Below are positions 3,143-42,167 of a stretch of DNA of 64,000 nt, in pieces. A program made the position numbers and the translations under genes. Numbering within the stretch: the first letter of the stretch is position 1; every line of letters begins with the position of its first letter. Location: the IMG/VR virus record IMGVR_UViG_3300034198_017445, positions 10,335 to 74,334 of that record, one strand, 5' to 3'. This DNA is from a virus. Below the pieces are notes generated by a model. The model had not been told where the DNA came from. It saw only the letters and a list, made by a program, of their open reading frames with translations, and did not search any database.

Positions 3143-3585
3143 TCCCTCGTGAGTTCATGGCTTCCGATGCTTTGGATGTGATGACTTCGTTCGCGGATGA
3201 CTTTGAGAGCGTGTCCGTTCGGGATGCGTTCGAAGCAATCAAACCAGACGTTCGCGAGGCGTTTGCTTCTAACTTTGCAAACACTCGTGCACCGTATGGA
3301 ACGTGGCCCCCCCATTCACCGTACACGGTTGCAAGGTATGGACCGCACCCACTGTTGATTCTGTCCGGCGCGATGCTCGCAAGCGTGACCACAAGCGGTG
3401 CTTCGGAGTCGATCGAGGAGACTGGCGATCGGTATATGGTGCTCGGGACTGGGTTTTTCTATGCTCCCTACCAGCAGTTTGGAACCAGGAAGATCCCACC
3501 CAGGCCGTTTTTGTGGCTGACTGGTGATGCTGCTGATCAGATTTCCGAGAAATTCCTTGATGCATGCTGGACTATTTTGGTCTGA
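3139..3585 (+). CDS. Phage virion morphogenesis (tail completion) protein
   Basis: W-P-S..T, L..SGAMLASV, YAPYQQFGTRKIPPRPFL. Confidence 0.8.
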   Translation: MIPREFMASDALDVMTSFADDFESVSVRDAFEAIKPDVREAFASNFANTRAPYGTWPPHSPYTVARYGPHPLLILSGAMLASVTTSGASESIEETGDRYMVLGTGFFYAPYQQFGTRKIPPRPFLWLTGDAADQISEKFLDACWTILV

Positions 3586-3601
3586 GAACGGCTATGTAAT
3601 T

Positions 3602-4537
3602 ATGGAAAAGTCGAAGCGGCAAATAGGGAGCGTGGTTGGGTTGGCGATCGGTGATGCGATTGGCGCTCCGTGGGAGTTCACGCGTGGTCCGAATGTGGTA
3701 AATGGATACGAGTCCGGTGGTCCCTGGGATCTTGAGAAAGGGCAGTGGACGGACGACACGTCGATGGCGCTGTGCTTGGCTGATTCGATTATCGAGTCGG
3801 GGTGGTCGCTTCGTGATCAGCTTGATCGGTATGTTCGCTGGCACCGCGATGGGTATATGTCTAGCACTGGTTCGTGCTTTGATATTGGCGTGACGACATG
3901 CCGGTCGCTGAGTGCTTACCAGAAGACTGGATTCACGATTGCCCCCCATGACGATCGAAGTCGTGGCAACGGTTCGATAATGCGTCTTGCTCCTGCAGCG
4001 GTTTATGCTTCTCGTATTTTTGACGTTTGCGGCATGCGCGGCGCTTTGGCTTTTGCGAATCTTTGCGGGACGTCGTCGCTGACAACTCACTCGCATCGGG
4101 AGTGCGTCGACTGCTGTGCATTTCTCGGGCTCGTGCTTGGGTTTCTTTACGAGTCGATGAGCCTGGAGGAGTGCTTCAAGCAGGACGCTTGGCATGCGAT
4201 TCAAATGCTTGAGAGTTTCCCGGAGATCGGGTACGAGGTTTTTGAGTCGTCAAAGAAGCCTGTTCCGTTCGGCGTCAGGGGGCGTGCGATCGATACGTTG
4301 ATTGCTGCTATTCATTGCGTTGCTACGACGAGCACGTTTTGCGAGGCTGTCTGCAAGGCTGCGGCGCTTGGTGGGGACACGGATTCGGTTGGTGCTGTCG
4401 CTGGTCAGATCGCTGGGGCACTGTACGGTATCGACGGCATTGACCATGATTTGATCGGGGGGCTGTTCTGGTCTGACAAAATCACGGCAATGGCAACGGA
4501 ACTATCGGAGTGGGTAGAAAAGCCAAGAAAAAAATAA
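3602..4537 (+). CDS. ADP-ribosylglycohydrolase (DraG/ARH family)
   Basis: GLAIGDAIGAPWEF, WTDDTSMALCLADS, GNGSIMRLAP, GGDTDSVGAVAGQIAG. Confidence 0.92.
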   Translation: MEKSKRQIGSVVGLAIGDAIGAPWEFTRGPNVVNGYESGGPWDLEKGQWTDDTSMALCLADSIIESGWSLRDQLDRYVRWHRDGYMSSTGSCFDIGVTTCRSLSAYQKTGFTIAPHDDRSRGNGSIMRLAPAAVYASRIFDVCGMRGALAFANLCGTSSLTTHSHRECVDCCAFLGLVLGFLYESMSLEECFKQDAWHAIQMLESFPEIGYEVFESSKKPVPFGVRGRAIDTLIAAIHCVATTSTFCEAVCKAAALGGDTDSVGAVAGQIAGALYGIDGIDHDLIGGLFWSDKITAMATELSEWVEKPRKK

Positions 4538-5581: not shown

Positions 5582-5626
5582 TGTGCGCATGGGTTGGGTA
5601 TCATTCCCTTTGGAGGATTGTTACCT

Positions 5627-6568
5627 ATGAGTCAAAGTGCAGCAGCTAGGTTGATGCTAGCCGACGATGCGGCTATCACGACGAATCCGATCGCGGTCGC
5701 GTTTTCGGATTGTTCGTTGGCAGGTCCACAAACGATCGCGACGCACATGGGGCACCGTGGAACGCGGCAGCGTGCTTCGTGCCGTTCTCGTGTCGTCTCA
5801 TCCAAGTCGCAAGGAAACATCACAGGAAATTTTTCGGTCACTGAGATCGACTGGTTTTTGAACCGCGCTCTCGGTGGTGCTACGCTCGGTGCGAACGGAA
5901 CGCTTGCGGCTTCTGGAAATTCGACTATTTATCCAGGCGAGTCCCTGCTTCCGATCTATGCGCTGGTCGACAAGGTCGCTGCAATCTACCTGTACAACAA
6001 ACTTCGCATTGCCAGCTTTGAGGTTGGTGGTCAGGAAACTCAGTATCTGAACTGGTCGATTGCTACGGCTGGTGAACTTGAGACGGTCTATGGTTCGGCG
6101 TGGCCATCGACACCTGCTTACGAGTGCGGGACTTCGTTCCTGTTCTCGGATTGCACTCTGACTTACAGCGGGACTGCATACAAAATGCAATCGTTCCGGT
6201 TGTCTGTCAGCAATGCTCTTGATGCTCAGCAGTACGAAAACTCGATCACTCCGTCGAGGTTTGAAACTCCTGACTTGCAGGTCGGACTGTCTGTCCAGTG
6301 TGCGTTGCGATCGGATACGATCGCGCTGTACAACGCTGCGCTCGCTGGTGCGGCTGCGAAACTTTCAATCAGCAACGGATCGACTTCTGGTTGCGTTACC
6401 TATGATTTTAATTTTGGAAACCTGAAGTATCGTCAGGGGGCTCCGACCATTCCTCCCCAGGGACGGATCAACATGCCATTGCAGTTTGAGGCGTTCCGTT
6501 CGGCTGCTGTTTCCAGCTTTGTGATCGGTGACAATCAAATTCACGTCGCGAAGACTGTTACGCCATAG
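5627..6568 (+). CDS. Major tail tube protein
   Basis: GGAGG RBS; about 313 aa, beta-rich; precedes the chaperone and tape measure genes. Confidence 0.7.
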   Translation: MSQSAAARLMLADDAAITTNPIAVAFSDCSLAGPQTIATHMGHRGTRQRASCRSRVVSSKSQGNITGNFSVTEIDWFLNRALGGATLGANGTLAASGNSTIYPGESLLPIYALVDKVAAIYLYNKLRIASFEVGGQETQYLNWSIATAGELETVYGSAWPSTPAYECGTSFLFSDCTLTYSGTAYKMQSFRLSVSNALDAQQYENSITPSRFETPDLQVGLSVQCALRSDTIALYNAALAGAAAKLSISNGSTSGCVTYDFNFGNLKYRQGAPTIPPQGRINMPLQFEAFRSAAVSSFVIGDNQIHVAKTVTP

Positions 6569-7032: not shown

Positions 7033-7448
7033 TGACATGGTTCGCGGTGTCGCTTTCAAACCCGGCGCTGGCATCGCGGCCATGTGATCTATGTCGGCAG
7101 ATCATGTTCGACGAGGAAACTGGTATGCCGTATGAATCAAAGCCTGGATCCAAAACCAAGTATGACGCTCGCGTCGGGAAGGTTCCCTGCGAGACGTCTA
7201 TTGGTTGCAAGAAGGGGCATTGGAAAGACAAGCCTGATCTAAATCCTTCGCAGGAAGCTGTAATCGACTTGTTCTATTCTTCGCGCGCCACGGGGGGAGC
7301 GTTTTTGTCTCGTGCCGAACGGCGCGATTGGTGGCTGCTTACTATTTTTGCGCGTCTTCAGGCCATCTCCGAGGCAAACGAGAGATCCGCATCGTCGTCG
7401 CTTTTGAGTTGCATCACTGCGATGCAGACGGGGGCAGTCAATGGCTGA
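7032..7448 (+). CDS. Tail assembly chaperone (T-like)
   Basis: In the -1 frame relative to the previous ORF; directly precedes the tape measure gene. Confidence 0.55.
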   Translation: MTWFAVSLSNPALASRPCDLCRQIMFDEETGMPYESKPGSKTKYDARVGKVPCETSIGCKKGHWKDKPDLNPSQEAVIDLFYSSRATGGAFLSRAERRDWWLLTIFARLQAISEANERSASSSLLSCITAMQTGAVNG

Positions 7449-9792
7449 GAATGCTGAACGCGGCGTAACATTCTTGCTTCGTGCAAAGGCGGATCCTAGC
7501 TCGCGCACCGTCATCGAAAGTTTTGGGCATGATCTAAGTTCGGCGCAGTCGCAAATCGACAAGGCTGTCTCTACGACTGCTCGCAATGTCGAGACGGCTG
7601 TCGATGCCCAAAACGCAAGGACCAAGGCTGCGGTGGATGCTTCGATCTCTGAACGGCAGCGTGCTGTCGATAGGTCGATCAAGGATCAGCAGGAGGCTGA
7701 GGAAAAGGCGCTTAATGATCGCGCTTCGGCGATTCGTCAAAGCGAGTCTAAGATATCGGCTATCGAGATGGACCTTGAAAGCAAGTCTCTTGAGGAACTG
7801 GAGGCTATGCGAGAACAGCGGATTGCGCAGCGTCTTGCAAAGGAGGAGCAGAAGTACCTGGAAGCGATGCAGGCTCGCATTGCTGCGGACAAGGCTTACG
7901 AGCAGATTTCTGACGCTGCTCAAAAACAAACGGTCGAGACGGGTCGTGCGTTGTCGAAGGAAGAAATCGACATCATCAAGCAGATCCAGAAAGCTCGCGA
8001 TACCTTGACTCGCGAGGCAGAGGCTTCTGAAAAGCGATGGACTTCGGTGCAAGAAGCGGAGTCAGAACGGCGCTTAAATTCTGCCATCGTCGAAGCCAAA
8101 AAGAAGAAGTCTGTCCAGGACGAGCAGGACGAGGCTGTCAAGGCGTCGCATGAAAAGGTCGAGAAGCACCTGGAGGACATGAAAAACGCACTCAGCGGCG
8201 CTCTGCTTGCTTCTGGTCAGTTGGCGCGTGGTCTTGCTTTCCTCGGGCTCTCTGGCGAGAAGGAAGTCAATAGGCTCACCGAGGGGATCATTAAGTTGGT
8301 TGGTGCCCTGGATGCGTTTGAGGGTTTTGTTGGCACCGTCATCAAGATCGAAAAAGCGTACCGATCGTGGACGGCTGCAACGGTCGAGCAGGTCGCTGCA
8401 GAGCAATTGCTTGCTGCTGCTCGTGCTGGTGGTTCGGCGGTTGGCGCTGGCGTCTCGGGGGCTACCGGGGCTGTTCAGGCTGGTGCGGCAAAACGGGCTG
8501 GAAGCGCAGCGGCTGGTGGGCTCGTTGGCGAGGGTGTTGGTGGGGTTGCTGGTGGTCTTGCTGGGACTGCGGTTGCTGGCGTCGGAGGAAAAATTGCTGG
8601 CACTGGACCGGTTGCTGGTGCGTTAGCTCGGTTGGCTGCGTTTGGGGATAGAGCGAAGGCTTTTGCTGCTCCTGTTGCTAGGGTCGCAGGAGGTTTGGCT
8701 GCGCGAGTCGCACCACCACTGGCTGCGCTTGCTGGTGGTTATGCGTTAGGAAGCGGAATCAGGAACGCATGGGAGGAGTCGTCGATCGAGGACGATGTTT
8801 GGGGTGGTGCAACGAAGCTAGCCAAGAACGTGATTGATATGCCCACGTTCGGCTGGGGTTCGTACATCATGGGCGAGAAGACTTTCGAGACGTCTCGCGA
8901 TCGCAGACTGAAAAGCGAGGACAAGGATTTCAATCAGCGAACGGAAATCCTGAACGAAAAAAACAAAAGGGACGCGGCTGACGAGGAGTCGCTTGTCGCG
9001 CAGACAAAACAGAAACTCGAAATCCTGGAAGCTCAAGCCCAGGTTGAGAAGCATCTTCATGACCTAAAATTCAAGGACATGACGATCGACGAAAAGCGGC
9101 TGGATCTGACTTCAAGAATCGCCGATGCTACCAAGGAGGCTGCTACCGGAGACGAAAAGTCTCATGCTCGTGTCATCGATCTTTTGAACAAAAAACTGGA
9201 GACTGAGCATGCGATTTACTCCGTTCAAAAGACCGCAGCAGTTGAGCAAGAAAACACCGCTAGAAAATTGCTCGATCTCGCGAACGCTAAACTTGAATCA
9301 GAAAAGTCTGCTCACGAGTCTGCCAAGGAACGCTTTGGTGGGATGTCAGCTAGTGAGCAACAGGAAACGATTGACCTGTTTGCAAAGTTTCAGCAGGATC
9401 CTAAGTCGATGGATCCTGAGGCCATGCGAAAGATGGGCGGTCTTTCGAAGTCTATGGATGCCCAGATCAAGGCTGAGAAGTTACGTCGCGCTGATGCGGC
9501 TGGCTTCGATCGAACGCTGGGTGCCAATGACGTAGCCGAAATCGCAAAGCTGGAGCACGAAATCAAAACCAAGTTGGAGGTCGACGTGCAGGCAAAGGCT
9601 GACGTGAGTGTCAAGCTGACGGCTGACTACGAAGCGATCGCTAAAACTGTAAACGAGCAGATCAAAGCCCAATGGAAAGACGTACTCGACTTGATGGCAA
9701 AACGTGTCATGGAAAACGAGTCGTCTATTCAAGATATCCTTAAAAGATTGAAGGATAGAAACATTCGCCTGACCAATGGAGGTATTCCATAA
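7441..9792 (+). CDS. Tape measure protein
   Basis: 783 aa, coiled-coil with an Ala/Gly-rich central part; canonical position. Confidence 0.85.
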   Translation: MAENAERGVTFLLRAKADPSSRTVIESFGHDLSSAQSQIDKAVSTTARNVETAVDAQNARTKAAVDASISERQRAVDRSIKDQQEAEEKALNDRASAIRQSESKISAIEMDLESKSLEELEAMREQRIAQRLAKEEQKYLEAMQARIAADKAYEQISDAAQKQTVETGRALSKEEIDIIKQIQKARDTLTREAEASEKRWTSVQEAESERRLNSAIVEAKKKKSVQDEQDEAVKASHEKVEKHLEDMKNALSGALLASGQLARGLAFLGLSGEKEVNRLTEGIIKLVGALDAFEGFVGTVIKIEKAYRSWTAATVEQVAAEQLLAAARAGGSAVGAGVSGATGAVQAGAAKRAGSAAAGGLVGEGVGGVAGGLAGTAVAGVGGKIAGTGPVAGALARLAAFGDRAKAFAAPVARVAGGLAARVAPPLAALAGGYALGSGIRNAWEESSIEDDVWGGATKLAKNVIDMPTFGWGSYIMGEKTFETSRDRRLKSEDKDFNQRTEILNEKNKRDAADEESLVAQTKQKLEILEAQAQVEKHLHDLKFKDMTIDEKRLDLTSRIADATKEAATGDEKSHARVIDLLNKKLETEHAIYSVQKTAAVEQENTARKLLDLANAKLESEKSAHESAKERFGGMSASEQQETIDLFAKFQQDPKSMDPEAMRKMGGLSKSMDAQIKAEKLRRADAAGFDRTLGANDVAEIAKLEHEIKTKLEVDVQAKADVSVKLTADYEAIAKTVNEQIKAQWKDVLDLMAKRVMENESSIQDILKRLKDRNIRLTNGGIP

Positions 9793-10535
9793 TGCTGTTC
9801 TCCGTTGGTTCGGTTGTTCGACCAAACAACGAGGCGGTTGCTTCGATCTCGATCACTCCGGTGTACGGTATGGATCGGGTGATGTCGTACTACATTGAGC
9901 GTTGGGACGTTACTGGTCGCATCGTCAATTGGCCGATAGCGACTCAGGATGTGACGACGGCTGCTCTTGCTCGGTTGAAAGCGGATATGCTTCAACAAAA
10001 CGTCGACGTGAAGTTCTTGGCTGACGATGGGAAGGAGACCGCTTTCAATCTTCGCGCATCGCAATGCTTGCTTGGTCCGTATGTCACTGAGTATTCATTT
10101 CCAAATTCCCAGGAGGAAGTCTACGCGACTGGTCAGTTGTATCGCGTGCTGTACGAAGCAAGGTGCATGCCTAGTGGGAACGCTTCGAACCTACTTGAGT
10201 TTAGCGAAACGGTTAGCTTGACTCAGGTTGGCGGTCGCCACATGGTGTACGTTGGTGGGTCTGTCAATTTGCCGGAACGCCAGACTGGAATCCAAAACAA
10301 GACGTGGATGTACTCTCAGTCTGGTAGTGCCGTTGGGTTGACTGCGTATCCGTTTATCCCAAATGCGATATGGCCATTTGCCCTAACAAATCCAGATGGG
10401 GTGTCGCAGTCGCTTGTGAGTCCTGTTGTGGTTGGAAACACTCCGGGGCTGGATACGGAGTTTCGGATATCGTGGGAGTACCAATTTGAGTGGGCGTATC
10501 CATTGCGTGGGTTGCCTCACAGGAGAACTATTTGA
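9792..10535 (+). CDS. Tail tip/distal tail protein
   Basis: Coupled directly after the tape measure gene. Confidence 0.6.
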   Translation: MLFSVGSVVRPNNEAVASISITPVYGMDRVMSYYIERWDVTGRIVNWPIATQDVTTAALARLKADMLQQNVDVKFLADDGKETAFNLRASQCLLGPYVTEYSFPNSQEEVYATGQLYRVLYEARCMPSGNASNLLEFSETVSLTQVGGRHMVYVGGSVNLPERQTGIQNKTWMYSQSGSAVGLTAYPFIPNAIWPFALTNPDGVSQSLVSPVVVGNTPGLDTEFRISWEYQFEWAYPLRGLPHRRTI

Positions 10536-10536
10536 T

Positions 10537-11778
10537 ATGGCTACTAAGTATTGGGTTGGTCGGGCTGCTCGCGTCGCGCAAGTTTCCAAGATCGTTTTTT
10601 CGTCTGTGACTGTTTCGGCGACGTACACCATCACCATCAACGGAAAGTCCGTATCGGTTGTAGCAGCCACGACTGTGCTCGCTGATCTTGTTGCTTTGTT
10701 TGCGGGGGCTTGGTCGTCGTCTGCGGAGCCTGAGCATCAAGAGGTGACTCTGGCTGGTCGGTTCGATCCAACGTTGTCTGGCGTGCAGCTAACGTGCAAC
10801 ACGACGGGAGTGGATTTTACTGTCTCTGCATCGGCGACTTCTGGGTCTGCAACTGTCACCACTCCAACGGCAGCATCGGGTCCGAATTTTTGGAACGTTG
10901 CGGGTAATTGGAGTGGTTCGACATTGCCATCGGCAGCAGACGATCTTGTGTTGTCAAACAGCGACGTTTCGATTCTCTACGGGTTGACCGACACGACCAG
11001 TTACGCTTCGCTTACAATCGATGCGTCGTACACGGGAACGATCGGTTTGCCATCAAAGAATGAACGCGGGTATCCTGAGTATCGCACTCAGCACTTGACC
11101 CTCGGTTCGGGTTCTGCGATCACTGTGACGATCGGAAATGGAATCGGTTCGTTTTCTCCAATGATCAAGTTGGATTTTGGGGCGTCGAATGTTACTTACA
11201 CACAGGTTGGGAGTTCTTCGTCTGCTTTCGGAACGTCTTCATCGGCGATTGAACTTCGCACGTCATCGTCTGCGAGCACGTATCGTGTCTACGGTGGTTC
11301 GCTATCTGTTGTCTCTGGCAGCACCGCGACCATCACGACTCTTGATGTCATTCGTCGCGATCAATCCAATATTCCTAACGTAGTTACGTCAAATGCGATC
11401 ACAATCACGACAGCCACGGTCATCGGCGGAAATGTCAAGATCTCGGGACCATGCACGACGCTTGTCGCGCGTGACGGGTCGGAGGTTACTACGGCGCAGG
11501 CTTCCGCAGCGGCGACGGTACGTGTCGGTTCCAGAGCAAGGATCGGATGGGAATCGTCCGGAGGAATCACGACGAAACTGTTCGTAGAGGCTTTCGGGAT
11601 AATCGATTTTGGTCGCGTTGCAACTTCGAAGACAATAGCTGCTTGTGATCTGTATGCCAGCGGTGCGATCTTGGATCCTTTGAACATCGCGACGTTCACT
11701 AATGGCATTGTTTTGCAAGCGTGCCGGTTGGCTGATGTTACTTTGGATGTTGGTATCGGAGTGACCATCAATGCCTGA
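10537..11778 (+). CDS. Tail protein (Ser/Thr-rich, beta-rich)
   Basis: AGGAG upstream; composition; position. Confidence 0.65.
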   Translation: MATKYWVGRAARVAQVSKIVFSSVTVSATYTITINGKSVSVVAATTVLADLVALFAGAWSSSAEPEHQEVTLAGRFDPTLSGVQLTCNTTGVDFTVSASATSGSATVTTPTAASGPNFWNVAGNWSGSTLPSAADDLVLSNSDVSILYGLTDTTSYASLTIDASYTGTIGLPSKNERGYPEYRTQHLTLGSGSAITVTIGNGIGSFSPMIKLDFGASNVTYTQVGSSSSAFGTSSSAIELRTSSSASTYRVYGGSLSVVSGSTATITTLDVIRRDQSNIPNVVTSNAITITTATVIGGNVKISGPCTTLVARDGSEVTTAQASAAATVRVGSRARIGWESSGGITTKLFVEAFGIIDFGRVATSKTIAACDLYASGAILDPLNIATFTNGIVLQACRLADVTLDVGIGVTINA

Positions 11779-13570
11779 TCCACAGGGAAGGCTGCGGTAC
11801 GCTGGTGTTTGGTGCGATGGCGCGTTTTCTGTTCCGCGTACCCCATCGTGCAATCCAGACACGATCGTCGCCGACTTCAATCTGTCAAAGAATTTGCCTC
11901 AGGTTGGAGACATTGAAGTCTGGTACGGAAGTTCGTTCATCACGCTTCCGCGTTGTCGCTTGATCCGTCAGGAGGTTCAGACTTCGGATAGCGGTCGGAT
12001 GTGGCGTTGCATTTTTCAGGATCGAAGGTGGGTATGGAACTACGCTTCGTCGATGGGAAACTTTTGCTATGCCAGCGGATTAAGTGATAACAACGGGTTC
12101 AAGCTAATATTTAATCAAGTTGAGATGATTGAGCTTTTGATTCGCTTGTTTGCTCAGCTTGGTGATGTGCCAAATTTCAACATTGGCACTCGCATCAATG
12201 GTGCGTTCACAAACCCAACGGTTCACATGAACCTTGCGCCTGCAAGCGTTGCGCTGGCTACGCTGCTTGACAGCATCAGTGCTGTCGCTTGCCTGAATTG
12301 GAACAACTCAATCAGTGTTTTCACGACGAATACTGGCGATCCTCCACCGAACGACTCGCGTGTTTGCGAGTATGCGATATCGTCCGTTCCTCCTACCATT
12401 CCGGAGTTCTTGGCGATGTTTTCGGAGCCAACGGAATTCCTGACTGACATCCCGCTTTCGGCGGTTGGCTTTGATGTGACCAGCGCAGGGGCTCCTGACT
12501 ACAACAATCCTAAGCCAATCGATCAACTGTCGTATTCACCTACCAGTGCTGGCAAGCCATGGGATCCACCGCACTTTAACAACGTTGATCCAACGTACCG
12601 TCAATTGGCTGTCGAGACCATCTTTCGGTTTTATCAAGTGCGGTATCGCAGGTCGAAGCTGCAGGTCGCCGTTCCGAACGTGCAGGCTGGATTGAAGCCT
12701 GGAAAGAAAGTATGGGAGTGGTTCAATCCAGACGACTTCGTTATTGGTGACTCCGACGACGAGTACTCTCGGCTGTTGTATCCTGATGTCAAAGGCAAAG
12801 AGCCGATCCCAGAGATCTGGGGATTCTATTGCACGGGTGGGTACTCAAAAAACAACAATCTGACCCCACCGCCAGCAGCGATTGCTACCGACCAGATGAA
12901 TCCCGCCTACACGTCACCCTATACGGCTGCGGGGGTGAACGCTCAGTATCCGTTGCTGGCTTACACGGGAAAGTATCGGTTTGATCGAGCAGCCAATATG
13001 GTGATTTTCCAGAAGCCTGTTTACTACAACAACTCGAACCCTGTCACGCTTGGTGGTTTTGGTCCTATCATTCCTGCGTTCTTAGTCATGCGCGCGTGGC
13101 ATCATTTGAGGCGAAAGTATGACCGAGAAACAATGCGTCAGTTTTCGTTTATCCCTACGGGATCTCCGTTCGCAATTCCTGGGCTTGTGCAGCCAAGCCC
13201 GATGAATTCTCCGTTCTTTGTCTCTCCAAGAGTTTTGGAGTGCACCAAGTGGCCTAACTGGACGGCGTTGGTTGAGCAGCGTGCTCGTGATGTGTTCCAG
13301 CAATTTGCGATTAACAAATCGGCAACGGTTCAGTACAAAGGCTTTGCTTTCGACATCAACGTCAACGGGTGCATCAAGGGTGTCCGGTTTGATTGTGGTC
13401 CTGCGGGGCATTGCACAACTACGGTTGCGTGGAACGAGGCGCAGGGTATTTTCTTCGACGACCATCGCTTGAAAGAAATCGAAGCATCGATGAAATTCAC
13501 GGCGACTCAGATGCTGAGAGTTTTGAAGAAAAGCGGGTTGTATGATCTTTCAAATTCGGTGCAGCCATGA
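11771..13570 (+). CDS. Tail hub/baseplate protein
   Basis: 599 aa ORF within the tail operon. Confidence 0.6.
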   Translation: MPDPQGRLRYAGVWCDGAFSVPRTPSCNPDTIVADFNLSKNLPQVGDIEVWYGSSFITLPRCRLIRQEVQTSDSGRMWRCIFQDRRWVWNYASSMGNFCYASGLSDNNGFKLIFNQVEMIELLIRLFAQLGDVPNFNIGTRINGAFTNPTVHMNLAPASVALATLLDSISAVACLNWNNSISVFTTNTGDPPPNDSRVCEYAISSVPPTIPEFLAMFSEPTEFLTDIPLSAVGFDVTSAGAPDYNNPKPIDQLSYSPTSAGKPWDPPHFNNVDPTYRQLAVETIFRFYQVRYRRSKLQVAVPNVQAGLKPGKKVWEWFNPDDFVIGDSDDEYSRLLYPDVKGKEPIPEIWGFYCTGGYSKNNNLTPPPAAIATDQMNPAYTSPYTAAGVNAQYPLLAYTGKYRFDRAANMVIFQKPVYYNNSNPVTLGGFGPIIPAFLVMRAWHHLRRKYDRETMRQFSFIPTGSPFAIPGLVQPSPMNSPFFVSPRVLECTKWPNWTALVEQRARDVFQQFAINKSATVQYKGFAFDINVNGCIKGVRFDCGPAGHCTTTVAWNEAQGIFFDDHRLKEIEASMKFTATQMLRVLKKSGLYDLSNSVQP

Positions 13571-14115
13571 CGCTAGTTGAGCAGGTTCGTGAGTACGGTT
13601 TTGAAAACACGACGGGCGAGGAGATTCCTCCGTTTGCGTGCTTGGCTGTAACCAGTTCAACGACCGAGAACGGCTTCGTTCGATACGTCATTCGGAAGCC
13701 AAACTACGAGGACGAGCAAGCGCAGAATCCAGGAAGGCTTGTGTTCAACTCTGGGGCTGTTTGTCCGGTTGACGCGTGGGGTTCGTGTTCGTCTGACTTT
13801 CCGGCGATCGCTCTTGTGAACGAAGCGACCGAAGTGACCGAGGGTCAAATCATGGGACCGGTTGAGAACCAATGGTATCTTGGTCCCTACGGCAACGCTT
13901 TTGTGCTAAAGGCGAAAGAGATCAGTCGTGATGCGGTTGCAACCGATATCTATCCATGGCTGGTTGAGCCGTATGTCGCCGAGGTTGAGATTGTTCGCGT
14001 GACATCGGCTACTCCTACGGCTGGTTACTATTCTGGTGTCGTGGAGCGATTCGACAAGGCGACGCTCACTTGGATTGCTGTTCGAGACTGCAAGGTGAGG
14101 GATACGAACGCATGA
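13567..14115 (+). CDS. Tail-associated protein
   Basis: ATGA coupling on both sides. Confidence 0.6.
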   Translation: MTLVEQVREYGFENTTGEEIPPFACLAVTSSTTENGFVRYVIRKPNYEDEQAQNPGRLVFNSGAVCPVDAWGSCSSDFPAIALVNEATEVTEGQIMGPVENQWYLGPYGNAFVLKAKEISRDAVATDIYPWLVEPYVAEVEIVRVTSATPTAGYYSGVVERFDKATLTWIAVRDCKVRDTNA

Positions 14116-15677
14116 CGATCCAAACACGGAGGTACGTCAGTGAGTTCATCGGTGTCGATGGCGCTCCGATCTACTCGGCTGAATGTCGCAATACGGTCAC
14201 GATGGAAGACAATCGCTTCGTTGCTAAGTTCCTTGGTGTCGATGGTGGTGAGCCAATCTTTGGTGTTGCGCGGTGCGACTTCCCTTCCCTCGGGCGATAT
14301 CCGATGCGGTTTGTTGGCGTTGACGGCGCTCCGGTTTACTCGATTGGTTGTTGCGTTCCGAGCTGCTACGAAATTTCGCCATTGGAGCGACCGGTCATAA
14401 GCAAGTCAGGATGGACGGCAAGTCCCTGGGGAACGAACCCATGTTGTCCGTGCATGGAGCTAGTGCCAGATACTCCGTTCGATCCGACTTACTGTTGCAC
14501 TGACTACTTTTTAGACAAAACTTTGACCGGCGTTTCTGTCATGTCAGAGCGAGCGTATCGAACACAAAAGCCGAAGCATTTCCCTACCACTGGTGGCGTT
14601 ACTCTATCGGAAGAACACTGCTGCGACGGCGCTCCGTTTGAGGTCGCTTCGACAACGCGAACGACCACTCAACGAATCAGGTACAAGCTGCTTACTGAGT
14701 TCCAGCTTATTAAGATTGTGATTTGCATCTCAAAGAATTTAGTGACGTGCGGAAGCGATGCGCCTGCCATGAAATGGATCGTCAGTTCGCGATTTGTTTT
14801 TTCGTATCGGTCGTGGGCTACGATCGCTTTGAATGCTGACGTTGTTCACGTCAGGACTGTAACTCCTGGGACGTGTTTCACTCTCGGCGCTGCGGATGTT
14901 GACTGCTCTGCATCCACTACTGCTCCGTGCCATCCTGATGATTTCGATGACAACGTAAATTCTCCGACTATCGGATTTGGGAACCAGCCAAATTTTATTT
15001 ATCTGGGTGGTGGTTCGGATTCGTTTGAGCGGGTCAAGTTTTACGAAACGCTTCCAACGGAGACCACTGTCAATTTCACCAATGCTGACGTTGGCGATGA
15101 TTGCGAGTGGGATCGTTGCGGTCAGGCTGGGATTCTTGGAGATAGTTTTTGCGTCGACGTGACTTCAGTTCCTTCCGGAATACCAACGTGCTATTGCGAA
15201 AAGTCGTACACGTCGCCGACGACTACCTACACCGGGAATATCGTTTCGTCGTGTTGTGGGATTTGCTCAATAATCGTCGGATTGAATTACCCGTACACCG
15301 AAGTTACTAGGTGCGATGACCCAGAGTTTTTCTACTTGGATTGTATCGCAGGTTGTCAGTTCGATCCGTGCCCGACTTCAACGTATTCGTACTCTACTGT
15401 GACGGCTGATTCGCCGACTGCATGGGATCCATGCTTCCCAAACTGGAGAGACGAGTTTCCTGATTGCGTTGGGAATTCGTGGGGGTACATGCGAGCAAAG
15501 ACATGCGCTGAGGATGCATCTTGCTTCTGGCCAGATTCGTGCGGTAGTTCGTGTGGATATCCCAAGTACGCTGGATTGGTTGCTATCTATCCGAGCCTTG
15601 TAACTACGGCTGAGTGTGATTTTTCTTCGCGCAGTTGTTGCCTGTCAGCACCTAGCTGGAACGTTTACTTTGAGTGA
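14112..15677 (+). CDS. Cysteine-rich putative tail fibre/receptor-binding protein
   Basis: About 38 Cys in 521 aa; three N-terminal F(I/L/V)GVDG repeats; end of the tail operon. Confidence 0.6.
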   Translation: MTIQTRRYVSEFIGVDGAPIYSAECRNTVTMEDNRFVAKFLGVDGGEPIFGVARCDFPSLGRYPMRFVGVDGAPVYSIGCCVPSCYEISPLERPVISKSGWTASPWGTNPCCPCMELVPDTPFDPTYCCTDYFLDKTLTGVSVMSERAYRTQKPKHFPTTGGVTLSEEHCCDGAPFEVASTTRTTTQRIRYKLLTEFQLIKIVICISKNLVTCGSDAPAMKWIVSSRFVFSYRSWATIALNADVVHVRTVTPGTCFTLGAADVDCSASTTAPCHPDDFDDNVNSPTIGFGNQPNFIYLGGGSDSFERVKFYETLPTETTVNFTNADVGDDCEWDRCGQAGILGDSFCVDVTSVPSGIPTCYCEKSYTSPTTTYTGNIVSSCCGICSIIVGLNYPYTEVTRCDDPEFFYLDCIAGCQFDPCPTSTYSYSTVTADSPTAWDPCFPNWRDEFPDCVGNSWGYMRAKTCAEDASCFWPDSCGSSCGYPKYAGLVAIYPSLVTTAECDFSSRSCCLSAPSWNVYFE

Positions 15678-15680
15678 TGC

Positions 15681-16103
15681 ATGAGAGTCGAACTGGGTTC
15701 TGGGGTCATTCCAAAAAAAGGCATCACGGTTATCAATCCGCCTGCATCTAGCGACGCGGTTGCTGCTCCCTTGGTTGGTCAAGCTCCTGGACGCATCGAC
15801 CAAGCGGAGATGATCCGTCGCGCTGGGCGTCTTGCGTGGCAGTTTCTCCACGAGTACGTTGGCTGCGATCCTCAATGGTTCAAACTTTGGACGATTCTTA
15901 TCCCTCGGGGCTGCGAGTGCGAGGAAGCGTTTGCAAAGATCGTAGTTGACTTTCCTCCTGACTTCTCATCCGACGATGCGTTCTGGGTCTGGGGTGTTAT
16001 GGTTCATAACTTGGTCAATGAAAAGCTGATCAAGAAGGGCGACACTACGAAGCGGATCATTCCTATCGACGAGGCTCGCTTTATTTGGAACCGTGCGGCT
16101 TAG
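15681..16103 (+). CDS. Erv1/Alr-like sulfhydryl oxidase
   Basis: WQFLH...IPRGCECEEAF...FWVWGVMVHNLVNEKL resembles the Erv W..LH / C..C..HF / HN.VN motifs, with CxC instead of CxxC. Confidence 0.65.
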   Translation: MRVELGSGVIPKKGITVINPPASSDAVAAPLVGQAPGRIDQAEMIRRAGRLAWQFLHEYVGCDPQWFKLWTILIPRGCECEEAFAKIVVDFPPDFSSDDAFWVWGVMVHNLVNEKLIKKGDTTKRIIPIDEARFIWNRAA

Positions 16104-16148
16104 GTCTATGTGCGCATCTCTGCGATAGGTTTTCACCATGGAGGTGAC

Positions 16149-16514
16149 ATGGATTTTCTACTTCTGTCCGATGAATTCGCTGTAAGATTGCAAGCTGGGG
16201 CTTTTGGTTCCTTGCTGGCTGTCGTTTCCGAGACTCGCGATCACTCAGTTCCTGCGACACGCAGGTGGCTTGGTGGGTGGATATTCGCTATCTTTGGGGC
16301 TCCAATCGGTTCTGCTCTGATGTTGTCTTTGCTTGGACCTATCGGCATGGTTGGGAATGCTACCAAGCGTGACGCGGAGTTGATCACGGCGTTCTTTTGC
16401 GGCATCGTCGGATGGAAAATCGTTCACGCGATTAACTTAAGAGCAAATTCATTTCGCTTTGGTCGTGACAAAAAAACAAAAGGCAACGACGAGAATCATG
16501 ATCAGCGAAGCTAA
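16149..16514 (+). CDS. Holin-like membrane protein
   Basis: GGAGG RBS; about 3 hydrophobic segments and a basic C-terminus. Confidence 0.55.
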   Translation: MDFLLLSDEFAVRLQAGAFGSLLAVVSETRDHSVPATRRWLGGWIFAIFGAPIGSALMLSLLGPIGMVGNATKRDAELITAFFCGIVGWKIVHAINLRANSFRFGRDKKTKGNDENHDQRS

Positions 16515-16830: not shown

Positions 16831-17428
16831 CAATGCTGCTGACCTTGATCAAAATCCGTCCGAGGTTGATCCTGCTCCCGTCAAGCCAAAGCCACGGAAA
16901 AAAAGAAAGCCCCACAGAAAACCAAAGGCACCGACCGTTTCAGACCCTCAGTCGTGGTTTTCTCTTAAGTCGTGGTCGTCGTCGATCGACTGGTATTTGG
17001 TTGGCTTGCTGTTTCTTGGTGCCATCACTCTTGCGCCCTACATAGTGAAGTTTACGCAGTTTGTTGTCCCTGCTGTAATTGTTCCTGTAGCTAATTTTGA
17101 CGCTTCGGCTGCAAAGGTTCCGGAGTGGCTCGGGCTCGTTGGAACCGAAAAAAACACGGGTGCTCCTGCATTCGCTGAGTCGCTTAGAACGATTGCGGCT
17201 GGATGCAAGTCTGGGGCGATCACAAGTTCGGACGTGCTTTGGGACAAGCTGCACGAGGAGTTCGCTGCAAAGACCGATGAGGTTGCGTGGGCTGACTGGT
17301 CGCTGTTTGCTCGGGAGATTTTCAGCGAGGCGAAGGCGTTGAAGCAGGCAGGTAAAATCACTACGATCAACCGCGATGTTGCGGCATATTTCGAGGCAAT
17401 TGCGAAAGCACTAGACGAGGTAAAGTGA
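16820..17428 (+). CDS. Single-pass membrane protein
   Basis: GTG start; Lys/Pro linker, TM helix, helical C-terminal domain. Confidence 0.55.
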   Translation: MTTDNAADLDQNPSEVDPAPVKPKPRKKRKPHRKPKAPTVSDPQSWFSLKSWSSSIDWYLVGLLFLGAITLAPYIVKFTQFVVPAVIVPVANFDASAAKVPEWLGLVGTEKNTGAPAFAESLRTIAAGCKSGAITSSDVLWDKLHEEFAAKTDEVAWADWSLFAREIFSEAKALKQAGKITTINRDVAAYFEAIAKALDEVK

Positions 17429-19575
17429 TGCCAGTTAAGACTCAGATTTGGGATCGGTATCTTCATGGCGATCTTGATCAGGCTGCTTTCCACGATCGCG
17501 ATCACCAAAAGAAGTTTGCGGCTGAAAGCCCTACTCCGATGTACGCGATGGCTGCGCCAAACGTCATGGCAAGGGAGCCAGCCAAGGACGTATTTCTTGG
17601 TCGCTATATGGTCATGGGAATGCGTACTCTCTACGGTCAAAACTACAAGTATCTCCCTCAGTACCAAGAATCAGGGACGTGTTTCTTGGCAGGCACTCTT
17701 GTGCTGATGGCTGACGGGACTGAAAAGCCAATTGATCAGGTGGTTCCTGGTGATTTTGTTCGTTCTCACGATGGGTCCATCCAGCAGGTGATTGATGTCG
17801 GTTCGCGTCAATTCACAGGGAATCTGCACAGTTTGAGAATGTCCGGTGCTTCGAGACCGCTTGTAACAACTGCTGAGCATCCGGTTTTGGGGTATTTGCG
17901 ACACAGAACATCGAACGCTTCGCATCGCGCACGGGACTGGCATCCGGCTTCATCTCTTGGGGCTGGGGATCGTGTTTTCGTTCCGTCTGGTTTTGATGGT
18001 GGTCGATCTATTTTTGATGCGTCGGTTCTTGCGATGGAAAAGGTCGTTAGGGTCTACAAGGAAGAAACCGTCACTGAGGATCGAGTACGTCCAAAGCAAT
18101 CGAGCAAGTCTTGCAAGCGGTTCATCCCATTGAACGCTGATGTTGGTTTTTTGGTTGGGTTGTATGCTGCGGAAGGAAGTGTGGAAAAAGGCGCACGAAC
18201 TACTTTTACAATGCATCGTGACGAAGTTGAAGTCTTAAATCGATGCAGTGTTTTTCTTAAAGATTTGTTCGGCACTTCCGGTACGGTTGGCGTATCCAAA
18301 AACCTATCCAGGCTTCGTGTTTCCTCGGTTGCACTGGCTCGTCTTCTGTCGATGTTTGTTCCTGGTAAGGCGATAACCAAGTCGTTTTCTGTTGACGTTT
18401 TTACTGCTTGTCGCGAGTTTCGCGAGGGTGTTTTGCGAGGATGGTTTGAGGGTGATGGTCATCTTTCGAAAAGGCGGCGAATTGGAGTAGGCGTGACCAG
18501 TTCGTTGCAATTGGCAATGGATATTGAAAGATTGTCGCTTTCCATTGGTGCGCGATGCAGTGTTTTTCCAAGAGAGCAGCAAGATCACCAGAACGCGGCT
18601 GCGAACGATATTGCCTACTCTGGTTCTTCGCTTGGTCTTGTGTCTGGCGTAGCCACTGAGAAGTCAACGCGGCCAAAGAATCACGTTGAGGTTGAAGGGG
18701 GATTTGCTGTCAACATCGCTTCAAATACTGCTATCTGGGTTGAAAATGTTCAGGTTTGGAACCTTGAAGTAGAAAACACCCATAGCTATATCGTTGCGGA
18801 TGTGGCTGTTCATAACTGCGTCGGGCAGTCTCACTCAAGCGGTGCGACTTGCGTTATGGCTGTTTCTTCGCTGCTCTCGGGGCTCAAGTTTCCCGGTCGC
18901 GCGGCGGTTGCTCCGATCTACGGTGGTTCTCGCGTTGAGGTCGGGAAGCAAGTAGGCAGGTGGGACGGTTCGACCGGATCCTGGGCTGCGGATTGGCTTT
19001 CGGTCAAGGGTGGCGTTGTCACGCTGCTTGAGATGGGGCTGGACGACAATCCCAAAACCGAGAAAGAGTGGCTTGCCACAATGCAACGGGACGAGCGTTC
19101 TGCGGTCGCCTGGGCTGCTTCTCGCGACGGTGTTCCTGCAAACTATGAGCAAATGTCCAAACTCAAACCTATCAGGTCTGCTCCGTTGGTTTCCACGGTT
19201 GAGGAGGTTCGGGCTTCGATCGGAAACCTAACACCAGTCAATATTTGCGGACAGGTCCATCCGTCGCAAAGCCTGACCGACAAAGGGGTGTCAAAATCCA
19301 TCAGTCGTGGTGGTGGTCACTCTACGCTCTTGATCGGTCAGTATTTCGACGGTACAAACTGGTGGTATGATCATCTCCAATCGTGGTGGTGGTATTACCA
19401 GGGAGGGTTCTGTCGACCGATTAATGCGATCGACAAGCAGTTCGCTCGTTGCGTGACTCGGATCCCTGAGTCGTGGCTAAAGAGTTGGCTCGTTGAACGA
19501 GACTGTTATGCTCTCGTTGGAGTTCAGGGTCTTGAGCCGGTGGAAAAGTCGTTTATGAAAATCATGCACTCTTAG
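17425..19575 (+). CDS. Papain-like (C1) cysteine peptidase containing an intein
   Basis: Spliced extein reads YQESGT-CVGQ (catalytic Cys), then GGGHSTLLIG (His) and LQSWW. Confidence 0.75.
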   Translation: MMPVKTQIWDRYLHGDLDQAAFHDRDHQKKFAAESPTPMYAMAAPNVMAREPAKDVFLGRYMVMGMRTLYGQNYKYLPQYQESGTCFLAGTLVLMADGTEKPIDQVVPGDFVRSHDGSIQQVIDVGSRQFTGNLHSLRMSGASRPLVTTAEHPVLGYLRHRTSNASHRARDWHPASSLGAGDRVFVPSGFDGGRSIFDASVLAMEKVVRVYKEETVTEDRVRPKQSSKSCKRFIPLNADVGFLVGLYAAEGSVEKGARTTFTMHRDEVEVLNRCSVFLKDLFGTSGTVGVSKNLSRLRVSSVALARLLSMFVPGKAITKSFSVDVFTACREFREGVLRGWFEGDGHLSKRRRIGVGVTSSLQLAMDIERLSLSIGARCSVFPREQQDHQNAAANDIAYSGSSLGLVSGVATEKSTRPKNHVEVEGGFAVNIASNTAIWVENVQVWNLEVENTHSYIVADVAVHNCVGQSHSSGATCVMAVSSLLSGLKFPGRAAVAPIYGGSRVEVGKQVGRWDGSTGSWAADWLSVKGGVVTLLEMGLDDNPKTEKEWLATMQRDERSAVAWAASRDGVPANYEQMSKLKPIRSAPLVSTVEEVRASIGNLTPVNICGQVHPSQSLTDKGVSKSISRGGGHSTLLIGQYFDGTNWWYDHLQSWWWYYQGGFCRPINAIDKQFARCVTRIPESWLKSWLVERDCYALVGVQGLEPVEKSFMKIMHS
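17680..18816 (+). mobile_element. Intein with LAGLIDADG homing endonuclease (379 aa)
   Basis: Starts CFLAGTLVLMADG; TAEHP block B; LVGLYAAEGS and LRGWFEGDG; ends VWNLEV..HSYIVADVAVHN before Cys. Confidence 0.93.
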
Positions 19576-40099: not shown

Positions 40100-40647
40100 C
40101 GAAGCGCTCGAAAAAGCATAAACAAAAAGCCGGACTGTCACCTGCTCTAGAACATACGACGGGCGGAAATCGCGAACCGCTTGAGTCACGTAAGAGCCAG
40201 ATAGCGACAGGCGTTAAACCCCAAACTGAGGATGAGGCGTATCGGGCATTCTGGCCAGAGTTTGCTCCAGGCATGGAGAAAATAGCCGAGTCAACAGGGA
40301 GGGGTGGAGCGTATCAACGTATGTCGGATATGGCACTGGCAATCCGTGCCGTGTCCGACTCGTTTCCAGTTCCTCGGGCAGCGGTGGAGCGTTTGGTGTT
40401 CGATGTCATTCGGCAATCGACCGATCCTTCGCTTACCCTGGAACAGAGGCAGCGGTCGCAGAAACTGCTGTCTCGCATGATCGAACGGAACGCGGCACCG
40501 AAGGGGTTGCCCGACCAACTGCAAACCTTGCCTGGGCAAGTACTCTCTATTCAGCAGGTGCTCGACGTGATCGATGTGGACGATAACGATATCGACCTGC
40601 GGGACTTCAAACCGGCAATCGGATCCGATGAGGATTATGCCGAATGA
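40096..40647 (+). CDS. Putative terminase small subunit
   Basis: Coupled directly upstream of the large subunit. Confidence 0.5.
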   Translation: MTKRSKKHKQKAGLSPALEHTTGGNREPLESRKSQIATGVKPQTEDEAYRAFWPEFAPGMEKIAESTGRGGAYQRMSDMALAIRAVSDSFPVPRAAVERLVFDVIRQSTDPSLTLEQRQRSQKLLSRMIERNAAPKGLPDQLQTLPGQVLSIQQVLDVIDVDDNDIDLRDFKPAIGSDEDYAE

Positions 40648-42167
40648 CTGCGGTCGCTGGCTGGACGGATCAGTTCGGATCGGAAAGCGTACATTCGCAC
40701 GAGCGCCAAAGTAACGCAGCCAGGGAGTTGTATCTGGACGCACAGGCGATGCGTTCTCCGTTGTTGCTGGCTGAACGGTTTTCTCGTGGCGAGTGGAAGC
40801 GTGCGCGGCACTTGCAGTTCATCGACTGGGAATTCAGAAATCTGCTGAAGTCTCGGGATATCGACCTGCTGATCATCAAATGCCCTGTCCGTCACGGAAA
40901 GAGCCAGTATCTAGCGCGGTGGGCTCCTGCTTGGTACCTGCTCCGGAATCCGCACAAACGGGTCATGATCTGTACCGCGACGGCTTCGCTGGCATCGTCT
41001 CACTCGCGTTGGGTGCGGGACAAGTTCCATGAGTTGGCTTCGCTCATGCAAATGAAGGGCGTTGATCCTACGCATGCTTCTGTGAAGGACTGGGGTATCG
41101 ACATTCCTGGCGGGGGTGGTGCGTTGGCTGCAGGTGTCGGCACGTCCATCGTCGGCTTCGGCGCGAATTTGCTGATCATCGACGATTACCTGAAAGACGC
41201 AAAATCGGCGTTCTCTCCAAAGATCCGGGACGACCAATGGGACTGGTTTCTGTCGACCAGTTCGACGCGGTTGGAGCCTGGGGGGAAGTTAATTCTTCTC
41301 TGTACTGCTTGGCATTCGGACGATCTCATCGGTCGCATCTTGAAACACAGAAAAGAGCTAGATATGCGGGTGCGTTGCGTCACTCTGCAGGCGTTGCGTG
41401 ATTCGTCGTATGGCGTTCACGATCCTTTGTGTCGGCAGGATGGCGAGGCGCTTTGGCCTGAGAGATGGCCTGTCGAGGTCATGGAGCGTCGGAAGCGCCA
41501 GGCTGGTATGTGGTGGCACTCGATCTACCAGGGAACGCCAAAGGGGACGGGGCTTTCATCCTGGCCTGATGCGTACTTCTCGAATATTTGGGCGGATGAC
41601 GACGAGTGGCCTAGTCCGGAGGAAGGCGTTCTGTCGGCTTCATTCCTCGATCCATCGAAGGGGAAGAATTCGAAAGTCGGGGATTATTCCGCGATCGTGT
41701 CTGTGGTTTACGCAAAGGGTAAGCTGTGGGTGGATTCCTCGATCGATCGTCGATCCGTGCAGGTGATGGTTCGGGAGTGGATGGAGTTCAACCGGGCGCG
41801 TCGTATCGCTTTCCAGGGGGTCGAGGGTAATGCGTGGCAGGATTTGCTCGCTGAGGACTACGTCGAGGAGTGTTTGCGGCACGGGTATCAAATCGATCCT
41901 CCTGAATGCGTGATTCACACGACGAACAAAAACCTGCGGATCGAAAAGATCGGGAAGTGGTTGGACGGTCGGTTGCTTCGGTTTCGTCGGACGGCTTCGA
42001 ACGAGTTGCTCCTTGCCCAGATGCGGGAGTTTCCGTTCGGGCAATACGACGACGGTCCGGACGGTCTGGAGGCTGCGATCGCGCTGCTGTGTCGATCTGT
42101 CGATGCGTTGTCGGATGCTCACGACATCGAGGAGAGCGATGCGACGGTTGGTACCAGACCGCTATGA
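40644..42167 (+). CDS. terL: Terminase large subunit
   Basis: PVRHGKS, LLIIDD, TAWH..D, FLDPS..GDYSA, DDGPD. Confidence 0.92.
   Translation: MTAVAGWTDQFGSESVHSHERQSNAARELYLDAQAMRSPLLLAERFSRGEWKRARHLQFIDWEFRNLLKSRDIDLLIIKCPVRHGKSQYLARWAPAWYLLRNPHKRVMICTATASLASSHSRWVRDKFHELASLMQMKGVDPTHASVKDWGIDIPGGGGALAAGVGTSIVGFGANLLIIDDYLKDAKSAFSPKIRDDQWDWFLSTSSTRLEPGGKLILLCTAWHSDDLIGRILKHRKELDMRVRCVTLQALRDSSYGVHDPLCRQDGEALWPERWPVEVMERRKRQAGMWWHSIYQGTPKGTGLSSWPDAYFSNIWADDDEWPSPEEGVLSASFLDPSKGKNSKVGDYSAIVSVVYAKGKLWVDSSIDRRSVQVMVREWMEFNRARRIAFQGVEGNAWQDLLAEDYVEECLRHGYQIDPPECVIHTTNKNLRIEKIGKWLDGRLLRFRRTASNELLLAQMREFPFGQYDDGPDGLEAAIALLCRSVDALSDAHDIEESDATVGTRPL

Follow-up and report, generated by a model that had tools for sequence, protein, structure and literature searches.

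A 64,000-base stretch of DNA of an uncultured tailed phage, hereafter the window (positions 10,335 to 74,334 of the 74,334-bp IMG/VR record IMGVR_UViG_3300034198_017445, which CheckV rates as 100% complete), carries two adjacent genes which, judging from sequence comparison and predicted structures, probably encode a phage sulfhydryl oxidase and the tail protein in which it forms disulfides. The first gene (14112..15677) codes for a Cys-rich protein of 521 amino acids (aa), the proposed substrate, and the second (15681..16103) for a 140-aa protein with an Erv/ALR fold, the proposed flavin adenine dinucleotide (FAD)-linked oxidase. Both lie on the plus strand, as do all genes assigned in the window, and the pair is kept on more than 100 related phage contigs. 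An initial annotation of the window had noted a protein with about 38 Cys at the end of the tail operon, followed 3 nt later by an Erv1/Alr-like open reading frame (ORF) with CxC in place of CxxC. This description is borne out: the protein has 38 Cys in 521 aa and its gene comes last in a tail module of the siphovirus type, the downstream ORF is recognized by profile (E 5e-14) and by its modelled fold as Erv-like, and its cysteine pair reads C78-E79-C80.

Identity and fold of the Erv-like protein

The two genes are separated by a TGC spacer of 3 nt, between the TGA stop codon of the Cys-rich gene (15675-15677) and the ATG of the Erv-like gene at 15681. The Erv-like ORF matches the Pfam family PF04777 (Erv1/Alr) with 32.5 bits at a curated cut-off of 27.6; the match spans positions 41-82 of the 93-position profile. 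When 1.84 billion representatives were searched in full with HMMER, 358 relatives were found at E <=0.001 and 69 at E <=1e-10. With a profile built from a 60-sequence alignment, Arabidopsis Erv1, human and rat ALR, yeast Erv1, pB119L of African swine fever virus (ASFV) and Erv2p were found in the PDB over the whole domain, with E values from 4.8e-14 to 2.2e-10. Cultured phages, searched by tblastn in 50,697 records, gave no match to the protein.

Structure prediction, which the initial annotation had suggested as a check, led to the same family. The AlphaFold model has a predicted local distance difference test (pLDDT) score of 85.5, with values above 92 in the core; residues 1-40 are disordered and residues 41-135 form a helical core of five helices (41-58, 64-71, 79-90, 98-118 and 129-135), arranged as a four-helix bundle with a short fifth helix. 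In a search of 48,161 representative PDB chains, which was independent of Foldseek, ranks 1-6 were all occupied by Erv oxidases (pB119L, Erv1 with two entries, Erv2p, and mimivirus R596 with two entries), with Z-scores of 8.0-10.0 over 91-101 aligned residues, while the first unrelated chain scored 5.5. Re-scoring of the Foldseek candidates gave a Z-score of 10.5 for pB119L (root-mean-square deviation (rmsd) 2.6, 92 residues) and of 9.0-9.4 for Erv2p, AtErv1, ALR and Erv1. The identity to Erv/ALR proteins in the structural alignments is 21-30%. By profile and by model, the 140-aa protein is a genuine Erv/ALR homologue, and on its sequence we file it as a divergent Erv subfamily, homologous to the known enzymes and with a variant active site.

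The putative active site

The Erv-like protein contains cysteines at positions 62, 78 and 80 only. The putative redox pair C78-E79-C80 (15912..15920) is found at the N-terminus of helix 3; in the AlphaFold model C80 is located in the first turn of helix 79-90 and C78 just ahead of it. C80 is aligned with the second Cys of the CxxC motif in AtErv1 and ALR. The canonical C-x-x-C spacing is replaced by C-E-C, which to our knowledge places the first Cys one residue closer than in all characterized Ervs. In the 60-sequence alignment, C80 is retained in 59 and C78 in 53 sequences. As Cys is shifted to position 76 in the seven sequences without C78 (IPCGxC in six; the seventh, P0039, lacks the second Cys), a cysteine pair at this site appears to be under selection. 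Among 148 representatives, the CxC motif was counted 127 times and PCGxC, i.e. CxxC, 18 times; in the first set of IMG/VR loci, CxC was present in 77/77 classifiable loci. Since both spacings occur, yet the pair is almost always kept, we argue that it is functional.

The motifs expected at a flavin site are likewise conserved. W53-x-x-x-H57 in helix 1 (15837..15851) is invariant in 60/60 sequences and aligns to the W...H motif of Erv1/ALR. Of the second motif, H109-N-x-V-N-x-K-L116 in helix 4 (16005..16028), residues H109 and N110 are invariant in 60/60 sequences; V112, N113, L116 and also W136 reach a conservation of at least 90%, and K115 is found in 52/60. HNxVN is found in 140 of 149 representatives. 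The W..H, HNxVN..K and helix-5 W positions line the flavin in published Erv structures. The protein has neither a shuttle disulfide nor the structural CX16C disulfide, with V106 at the Cys position; according to the Fass laboratory, many compact viral Ervs likewise have no structural and shuttle disulfides (PMC3509050).

The third cysteine, C62 (15864-15866), belongs to a G-C-D-P loop that joins helices 1 and 2. It is nearly invariant in the closest subgroup and is present in 23/60 sequences of the wider alignment. It may act as a resolving Cys, provide a link to the substrate, or have another role.

The Cys-rich protein

With a Cys share of 7.29%, the 521-aa protein ranks first of the 80 ORFs that have 100 aa or more on the plus strand of the 74,334-bp genome; the genome median is 2.0%, and the protein lies 3.7 standard deviations above the other ORFs. 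The next-highest shares belong to a 175-aa protein with 12 Cys and to an Arg-rich ORF that is probably non-coding, and the 521-aa protein is the only large Cys-rich protein of the phage genome. Two close homologues, with 54% and 38% identity, contain 37 and 36 Cys, and 30 Cys are invariant among these proteins, which argues for a real coding sequence. The Cys pattern comprises six CC doublets and one CxxC only.

An AlphaFold model based on an alignment of 29 diverse family members shows a confident beta-rich core (residues 85-360 and 460-521), with many blocks above 90. The N-terminal 80 residues, modelled with low confidence, contain three repeats of the form R-[YF]-V-x-x-F-x-GVDGAP-x-[YF]...C (14130..14354), which were read from the translation, are about 20 residues long and end with a Cys. 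They are common to the homologue P0004 and absent in P0003 and most of the wider family, and may form an adaptor to the baseplate of this phage. Residues 364-458 (15201..15485) form a Cys-dense segment with 9 Cys, little regular structure and low model confidence; the segment is variable across the family alignment and may be a disulfide-knotted variable tip.

The whole, partly confident 521-residue model was used as query in the structure searches. With Foldseek, template modelling (TM) scores did not exceed 0.13 in the PDB and 0.17 in BFVD; the best Z-score in a PDB-wide VIA search was 4.9, without a convincing known fold, and the ESM Atlas gave no usable match. As the whole model rather than single domains was queried, these results are no proof of a new fold. 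Rows for aerolysin and for levivirus coat proteins were judged not credible, and a Pfam match to Vp24_capsid (19.4 bits) was disregarded because it falls under the 27-bit cut-off. Neither gene of the pair was matched in PHROGs.

The gene closes a tail module that runs from the tube and tape-measure genes over a 599-aa hub-like protein and a 182-aa protein to the Cys-rich gene, from which we infer that the Cys-rich protein is likely a distal tail or receptor-binding protein.

Conservation of the gene pair

Conservation of the pair had also been put forward as a check in the initial annotation, and it was found in both directions across diverged phage contigs. When IMG/VR was scanned with a pattern from an Erv sub-alignment, 165 loci were confirmed and 80 of them retained. 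In 79/80, the Erv ORF is abutted or overlapped by an upstream ORF of 363-880 aa with 5.9-9.6% Cys, and the remaining locus is cut off by the contig end. Among the partners there are 62 distinct sequences, which fall into 32 clusters at 70% identity, and one BLASTP component holds 60 of the 65 partner proteins compared, including that of the window. The reverse scan was seeded with aligned Cys-rich family proteins and gave 37 loci, including at least 13 on new contigs. An Erv ORF follows immediately downstream in 35/37; the other two genes end only 19 bases and 1 base before the contig end, so that all 35 testable loci carry the pair. Near relatives of the window's own Cys-rich protein, sought in IMG/VR with single-protein and three-sequence patterns, yielded no extra loci. 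A single-protein Erv scan returned one locus only, L001, which was dropped as its similarity is N-terminal and it has no Cys-rich neighbour.

The upstream tail genes of the window are common to locus L066 only, and the remaining loci have other upstream genes, which suggests that the pair travels as a unit between tail modules. Homologues of the 182-aa protein adjoin the Cys-rich gene on its upstream side in L066, L003, L059 and L046. The gene after Erv varies among related loci (metallophosphatase, unknown proteins, a glycosyltransferase fusion), while the upstream Cys-rich gene is constant. In L060 (6260-7258), L020 (7052-8068) and L080 (6215-7246) the gene that follows encodes a calcineurin-like metallophosphoesterase (PF00149), compared with a holin-like protein in the window.

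CxC and CxxC groups of phage Ervs

A third IMG/VR scan, seeded with canonical CxxC sequences, added 63 more varied loci, and all 178 loci were pooled into 30 Erv clusters at 70% identity. A partner with at least 5.5% Cys was present in 16/19 CxC clusters and in 2/10 CxxC clusters (Fisher p = 0.0013, uncorrected for phylogeny); the partners of the two CxxC clusters have 12% and 6.7% Cys. On these sequence data, the specialized pairing of substrate and enzyme would characterize the CxC clade, which includes the window's protein. Proteins of 314-316 aa with 38 Cys (12%) and no Pfam match are encoded directly upstream of a CxxC Erv in L135 (3706-4656), L139 (3712-4656) and L140 (3709-4656).

A large CxxC group consists of phage Ervs of 126-127 aa (L157-L160, L165-L170, L174, L180-L188), some on contigs of 80-183 kb. 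Their upstream gene encodes 200-227 aa and is methyltransferase-like (PF13578) in the scanned example, L160 (221 aa); no Cys-rich gene is found within 3 kb of the Erv gene.

Several Ervs are fused to a sugar- or sulfate-transferring domain. C-terminal fusions to glycosyltransferases (GT) of families GT1/GT4 occur in P0009, P0027, P0055, P0070 and P0098 and in the loci L009 (5920-7365) and L162 (4896-6212); other fusions involve GT25 (L131, 4419-6245), GT8 as a weak match below the cut-off (L151, 4788-6146) and a sulfotransferase (P0111). The fusions examined in viral loci lie downstream of genes with 4.6-7% Cys, the lowest being that of L131. That Erv and glycosyltransferase have been fused repeatedly would be in keeping with a function in the maturation of a surface protein of the virion; no glycosyltransferase domain is present in the window's own Erv-like protein. 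A 2,503-aa protein with 21 'Erv-like' stretches (P0088) was rejected as a spurious match of a low-complexity charged repeat protein.

Proposed function and alternative explanations

We propose that the two genes form a substrate-enzyme pair that would introduce disulfides in the cytoplasm of the bacterium as the phage assembles. The 140-aa protein would be a compact Erv flavoenzyme, with C78-x-C80 at the start of helix 3 placed beside the bound FAD. The cysteine pair would draw two electrons from thiol pairs of the newly made 521-aa protein and hand them to FAD, from which they would pass to oxygen, yielding H2O2. The 3-nt gene spacing would deliver enzyme and substrate together, and the disulfide-stabilized protein would then join the distal tail, probably as a receptor-binding part. 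In the simplest model, an Erv dimer oxidizes its neighbour directly, with oxygen as the acceptor. The absence of a shuttle disulfide is compatible with this, as compact viral Ervs of this kind are known, and yeast Erv1p together with an isomerase allows the formation of proteins with up to 44 disulfides in the cytoplasm of wild-type E. coli (the CyDisCo system; PMC11180911). That the cysteines of the 521-aa protein would be present as disulfides is favoured by the CC doublets, the near absence of CxxC, the beta-rich architecture and the obligatory oxidase neighbour. The Cys column pairs 347/510 and 481/502 of the family alignment always co-occur, which is confounded by phylogeny and is no proof of disulfides.

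Several observations weigh against this proposal. We know of no characterized precedent for an active-site CxC beside a flavin. The many CxxC phage Ervs without a Cys-rich neighbour suggest that an Erv module need not always serve the adjacent gene. The assignment of the Cys-rich protein to the tail is drawn from gene order and the hub-like neighbour, and its whole model matched no known tail-fibre fold in the PDB or BFVD. Cys counts in the family are odd in 21 members and even in 8, so that some cysteines must be unpaired, intermolecular or metal-bound. Finally, neither a thioredoxin-fold partner nor an isomerase was found, although poxviruses and CyDisCo use one, and the lack of an isomerase is a real gap: the Pfam families Thioredoxin, Glutaredoxin and DSBA had no match at E <=0.1 in six frames of the 74-kb genome, while control genomes were positive. 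A relay like that of poxviruses (E10R, A2.5L, G4L) is thus not evident, but it could consist of proteins with another fold.

Alternatively, the 521-aa protein might use its cysteines to bind metal (Zn or Fe-S) or keep them reduced; the Erv-like protein would then have another role, and the genes would be adjacent through shared inheritance of the module. The often odd Cys counts speak for this, as does a CCCxCxC-like cluster at the N-terminus of most members of the Cys-rich family, which resembles a metal-binding motif. The 38 cysteines of the window's protein, however, include a single CxxC and six CC doublets, as is typical of extracellular proteins rich in disulfides but not of Zn sites. 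Also, in 32 diverged clusters of partner proteins and behind different tail modules, the Cys-rich gene and that of the thiol-oxidase homologue are tightly and mutually linked. Both points make the metal-bound or reduced state quite unlikely. An unlikely explanation, too, is that the Erv-like protein works mainly as a disulfide isomerase or assembly chaperone, or is even a pseudo-enzyme, while air oxidizes the Cys-rich protein after lysis. CxC peptides reportedly served Woycechowsky and Raines in 2003 as mimics of protein disulfide isomerase, and a preprint also reports such mimicry (bioRxiv 10.64898/2026.01.27.701630); the CxC motif indeed departs from the oxidase norm, and no separate isomerase was found encoded. 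However, W53, H57, H109, N110, V112 and N113 are invariant or nearly so, which would be difficult to account for if the protein bound no flavin and transferred no electrons.

The target of an active oxidase might also be other than the neighbouring protein, namely host proteins, other virion proteins or the timing of lysis through H2O2 or thiol oxidation. The Erv-like gene of the window stands directly ahead of the holin-like gene, and the large group of 126-127-aa CxxC Ervs follows a methyltransferase-like gene in place of a Cys-rich one. Against this stand the downstream gene, which varies among related loci while the Cys-rich gene upstream does not, and the lack of any other large Cys-rich protein in the phage genome. 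We therefore regard such a target as very unlikely and favour the oxidation of the adjacent tail protein.

As for the missing isomerase, the preprint (bioRxiv 10.64898/2026.01.27.701630) reports that CxC peptides can stand in for protein disulfide isomerase, and the analogy suggests, speculatively, that the CxC site combines oxidase and isomerase activities. The CxC Erv could then be a self-sufficient catalyst of oxidative folding, in which a strained, highly oxidizing CxC disulfide both introduces and reshuffles disulfides, so that one enzyme of 140 aa folds a protein with up to 19 disulfides in a reducing cytoplasm without a thioredoxin-fold partner. We consider this extension possible but rather doubtful.

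Comparison with known systems

The initial annotation had compared the system with Erv-family oxidases of large eukaryotic DNA viruses, and the likeness to the poxvirus, ASFV and mimivirus enzymes proved apt, with ASFV pB119L (PDB 3GWL) as the best structural match (Z 10.0-10.5, rmsd 2.6-3.0, 91-92 residues). Like pB119L, vaccinia E10R and the other Ervs of nucleocytoplasmic large DNA viruses (NCLDV), the phage protein is a minimal module of about 100 residues without a shuttle disulfide. The NCLDV enzymes are encoded by viruses that assemble in a reducing cytoplasm and are thought to oxidize virion proteins, a setting similar to that proposed for the phage. Unlike them, the phage system has a bacterial host, a tailed virus, a CxC motif and one adjacent gene as the presumed substrate, and a thioredoxin-like relay of the A2.5L/G4L or pA151R type was not detected in the phage genome. 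With cellular Erv1/ALR/Erv2 (PF04777) the phage protein has the fold and the W..H, HNxVN..K and C-terminal W motifs in common. It differs from them in the missing shuttle and CX16C disulfides, the CxC spacing, the extra C62 in the loop between helices 1 and 2, and a disordered, Cys-free N-terminal region of 40 residues.

In CyDisCo, where Erv1p is combined with protein disulfide isomerase or DsbC in E. coli, an Erv likewise works in a bacterial cytoplasm with intact reducing pathways and a co-expressed substrate (PMC11180911). The phage pair, in contrast, is natural, has no identified isomerase, and has the oxidase gene placed 3 nt after that of the presumed substrate. Another parallel is provided by phage virion glycosylation cassettes, in which glycosyltransferases are encoded beside structural genes, e.g. 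in mycobacteriophages. As in these cassettes, a putative modifying enzyme is encoded next to a presumed virion protein, and related Ervs are fused to GT1/GT4 or GT25 domains; the chemistry proposed for the phage pair is, however, thiol oxidation, and the window's enzyme carries no such domain.

Genomic context and possible host

The tail module begins with the tail tube gene (5594-6568; PF18906, phrog_290), followed by two small ORFs and a gene for a putative tape measure protein of 783 aa (7441-9792), which is weakly matched by phrog_1533. After it come three proteins without family matches. Among them is the 599-aa baseplate-hub-like product (11771..13570), encoded two genes upstream of the Cys-rich gene; it has no match in Pfam or PHROGs, but a structure search of the ESM Atlas returned Phage_GPD, YQBQ and E217_gp41 clusters with TM scores, taken by target, of 0.67-0.71, and VgrG-like clusters too. 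The gene of the 182-aa protein (13567..14115) overlaps the start of the Cys-rich gene with its stop codon (ATGA). Directly after the pair, a holin-like membrane protein (16110..16514; phrog_13918, E 6.9e-6; phrog_2359 (holin), E 0.0039) opens the lysis region. The large terminase subunit (40644-42167) has less than 30% identity to that of any cultured phage. Of the sequencing runs searched, one DNA data set matched, which may be the source sample itself, and none of RNA was listed.

Further protein-coding genes of the window, all on the plus strand, were recorded. Close to the tail genes and ahead of them, a protein with a lipid desaturase domain (1812-2354; PF10520, E 2e-38) and an ADP-ribosylglycohydrolase (3524-4537; PF03747, E 3e-58) are encoded, which look like auxiliary or moron genes. 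Shortly 3' of the holin-like gene, a 716-aa protein (17425-19575) contains an intein with Hint and LAGLIDADG homing-endonuclease parts at residues ~82-470; its C-extein of 251 aa has no Pfam match, and the split protein may be a lysis enzyme. A 582-aa protein (46010-47758) inside the phage genome has a Cas12f1-like/TnpB TNB domain (PF07282, E 9e-9). A transfer-messenger RNA called by ARAGORN (63458-64011, 554 nt, permuted, extending beyond the window end) is probably spurious, as no Rfam family reached its gathering score anywhere in the window.

A lead to the host comes from a 3.5-kb contig binned in a metagenome-assembled genome (MAG) of Pirellula, which carries the pair as a 398-aa ORF with 6.8% Cys followed by an Erv gene. 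PF04777 has also been listed for Pirellula among few bacterial groups in a published survey (PMC10598087). As matches were rare (1 of 401 genomes in the phylum, 2 of 301 in the family), we regard Planctomycetota as a lead to the host and not as a result. Within the family of the Pirellula MAG, another bacterial genome has a divergent Erv-like gene on a 1-Mb contig (L128, G552:C3:224000-243900; 9617-10135, minus strand). At its N-terminus the product has a CxxC...CxxC like that of zinc ribbons, and HNxVN is replaced by HDxVD; the gene is preceded by large ORFs, and its neighbours have no PHROG matches except for a nearby transposase.

Implications

In bacteria, structural disulfides are believed to form outside the cytoplasm. 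The Erv family has been described as eukaryotic and NCLDV/baculoviral (PMC3509050; PMC10598087), and possession of its oxidases is seen as characteristic of eukaryotes and the large DNA viruses that infect them (PMC3509050); the literature searched yielded no account of a bacteriophage with an Erv oxidase. Neither the enzyme family nor the viral disulfide strategy is thus new; the novelty lies in the bacterial-virus setting, the fixed pairing of a substrate gene with an enzyme gene, and the CxC spacing of the active site.

If the proposed function is correct, tailed phages would share with poxviruses both a problem, namely how to make virion parts with disulfide bonds in a cytoplasm that is reducing, and the enzyme fold that solves it. 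The two genes would provide a natural, compact oxidase-substrate pair that is directly testable in E. coli and may find practical use in the cytoplasmic production of disulfide-rich proteins. A conserved CxC variant of the active site would be added to Erv enzymology, and the placement of the giant-virus and eukaryotic Erv family relative to prokaryotic viruses would be affected. Should the CxC enzyme even be a self-sufficient folding catalyst, the pair would represent the first dedicated disulfide-forming pathway in a prokaryotic virus and a natural one-gene counterpart of CyDisCo, which the fused glycosyltransferases of sister phages would extend to a maturation of the tail tip resembling that of a secretory pathway.

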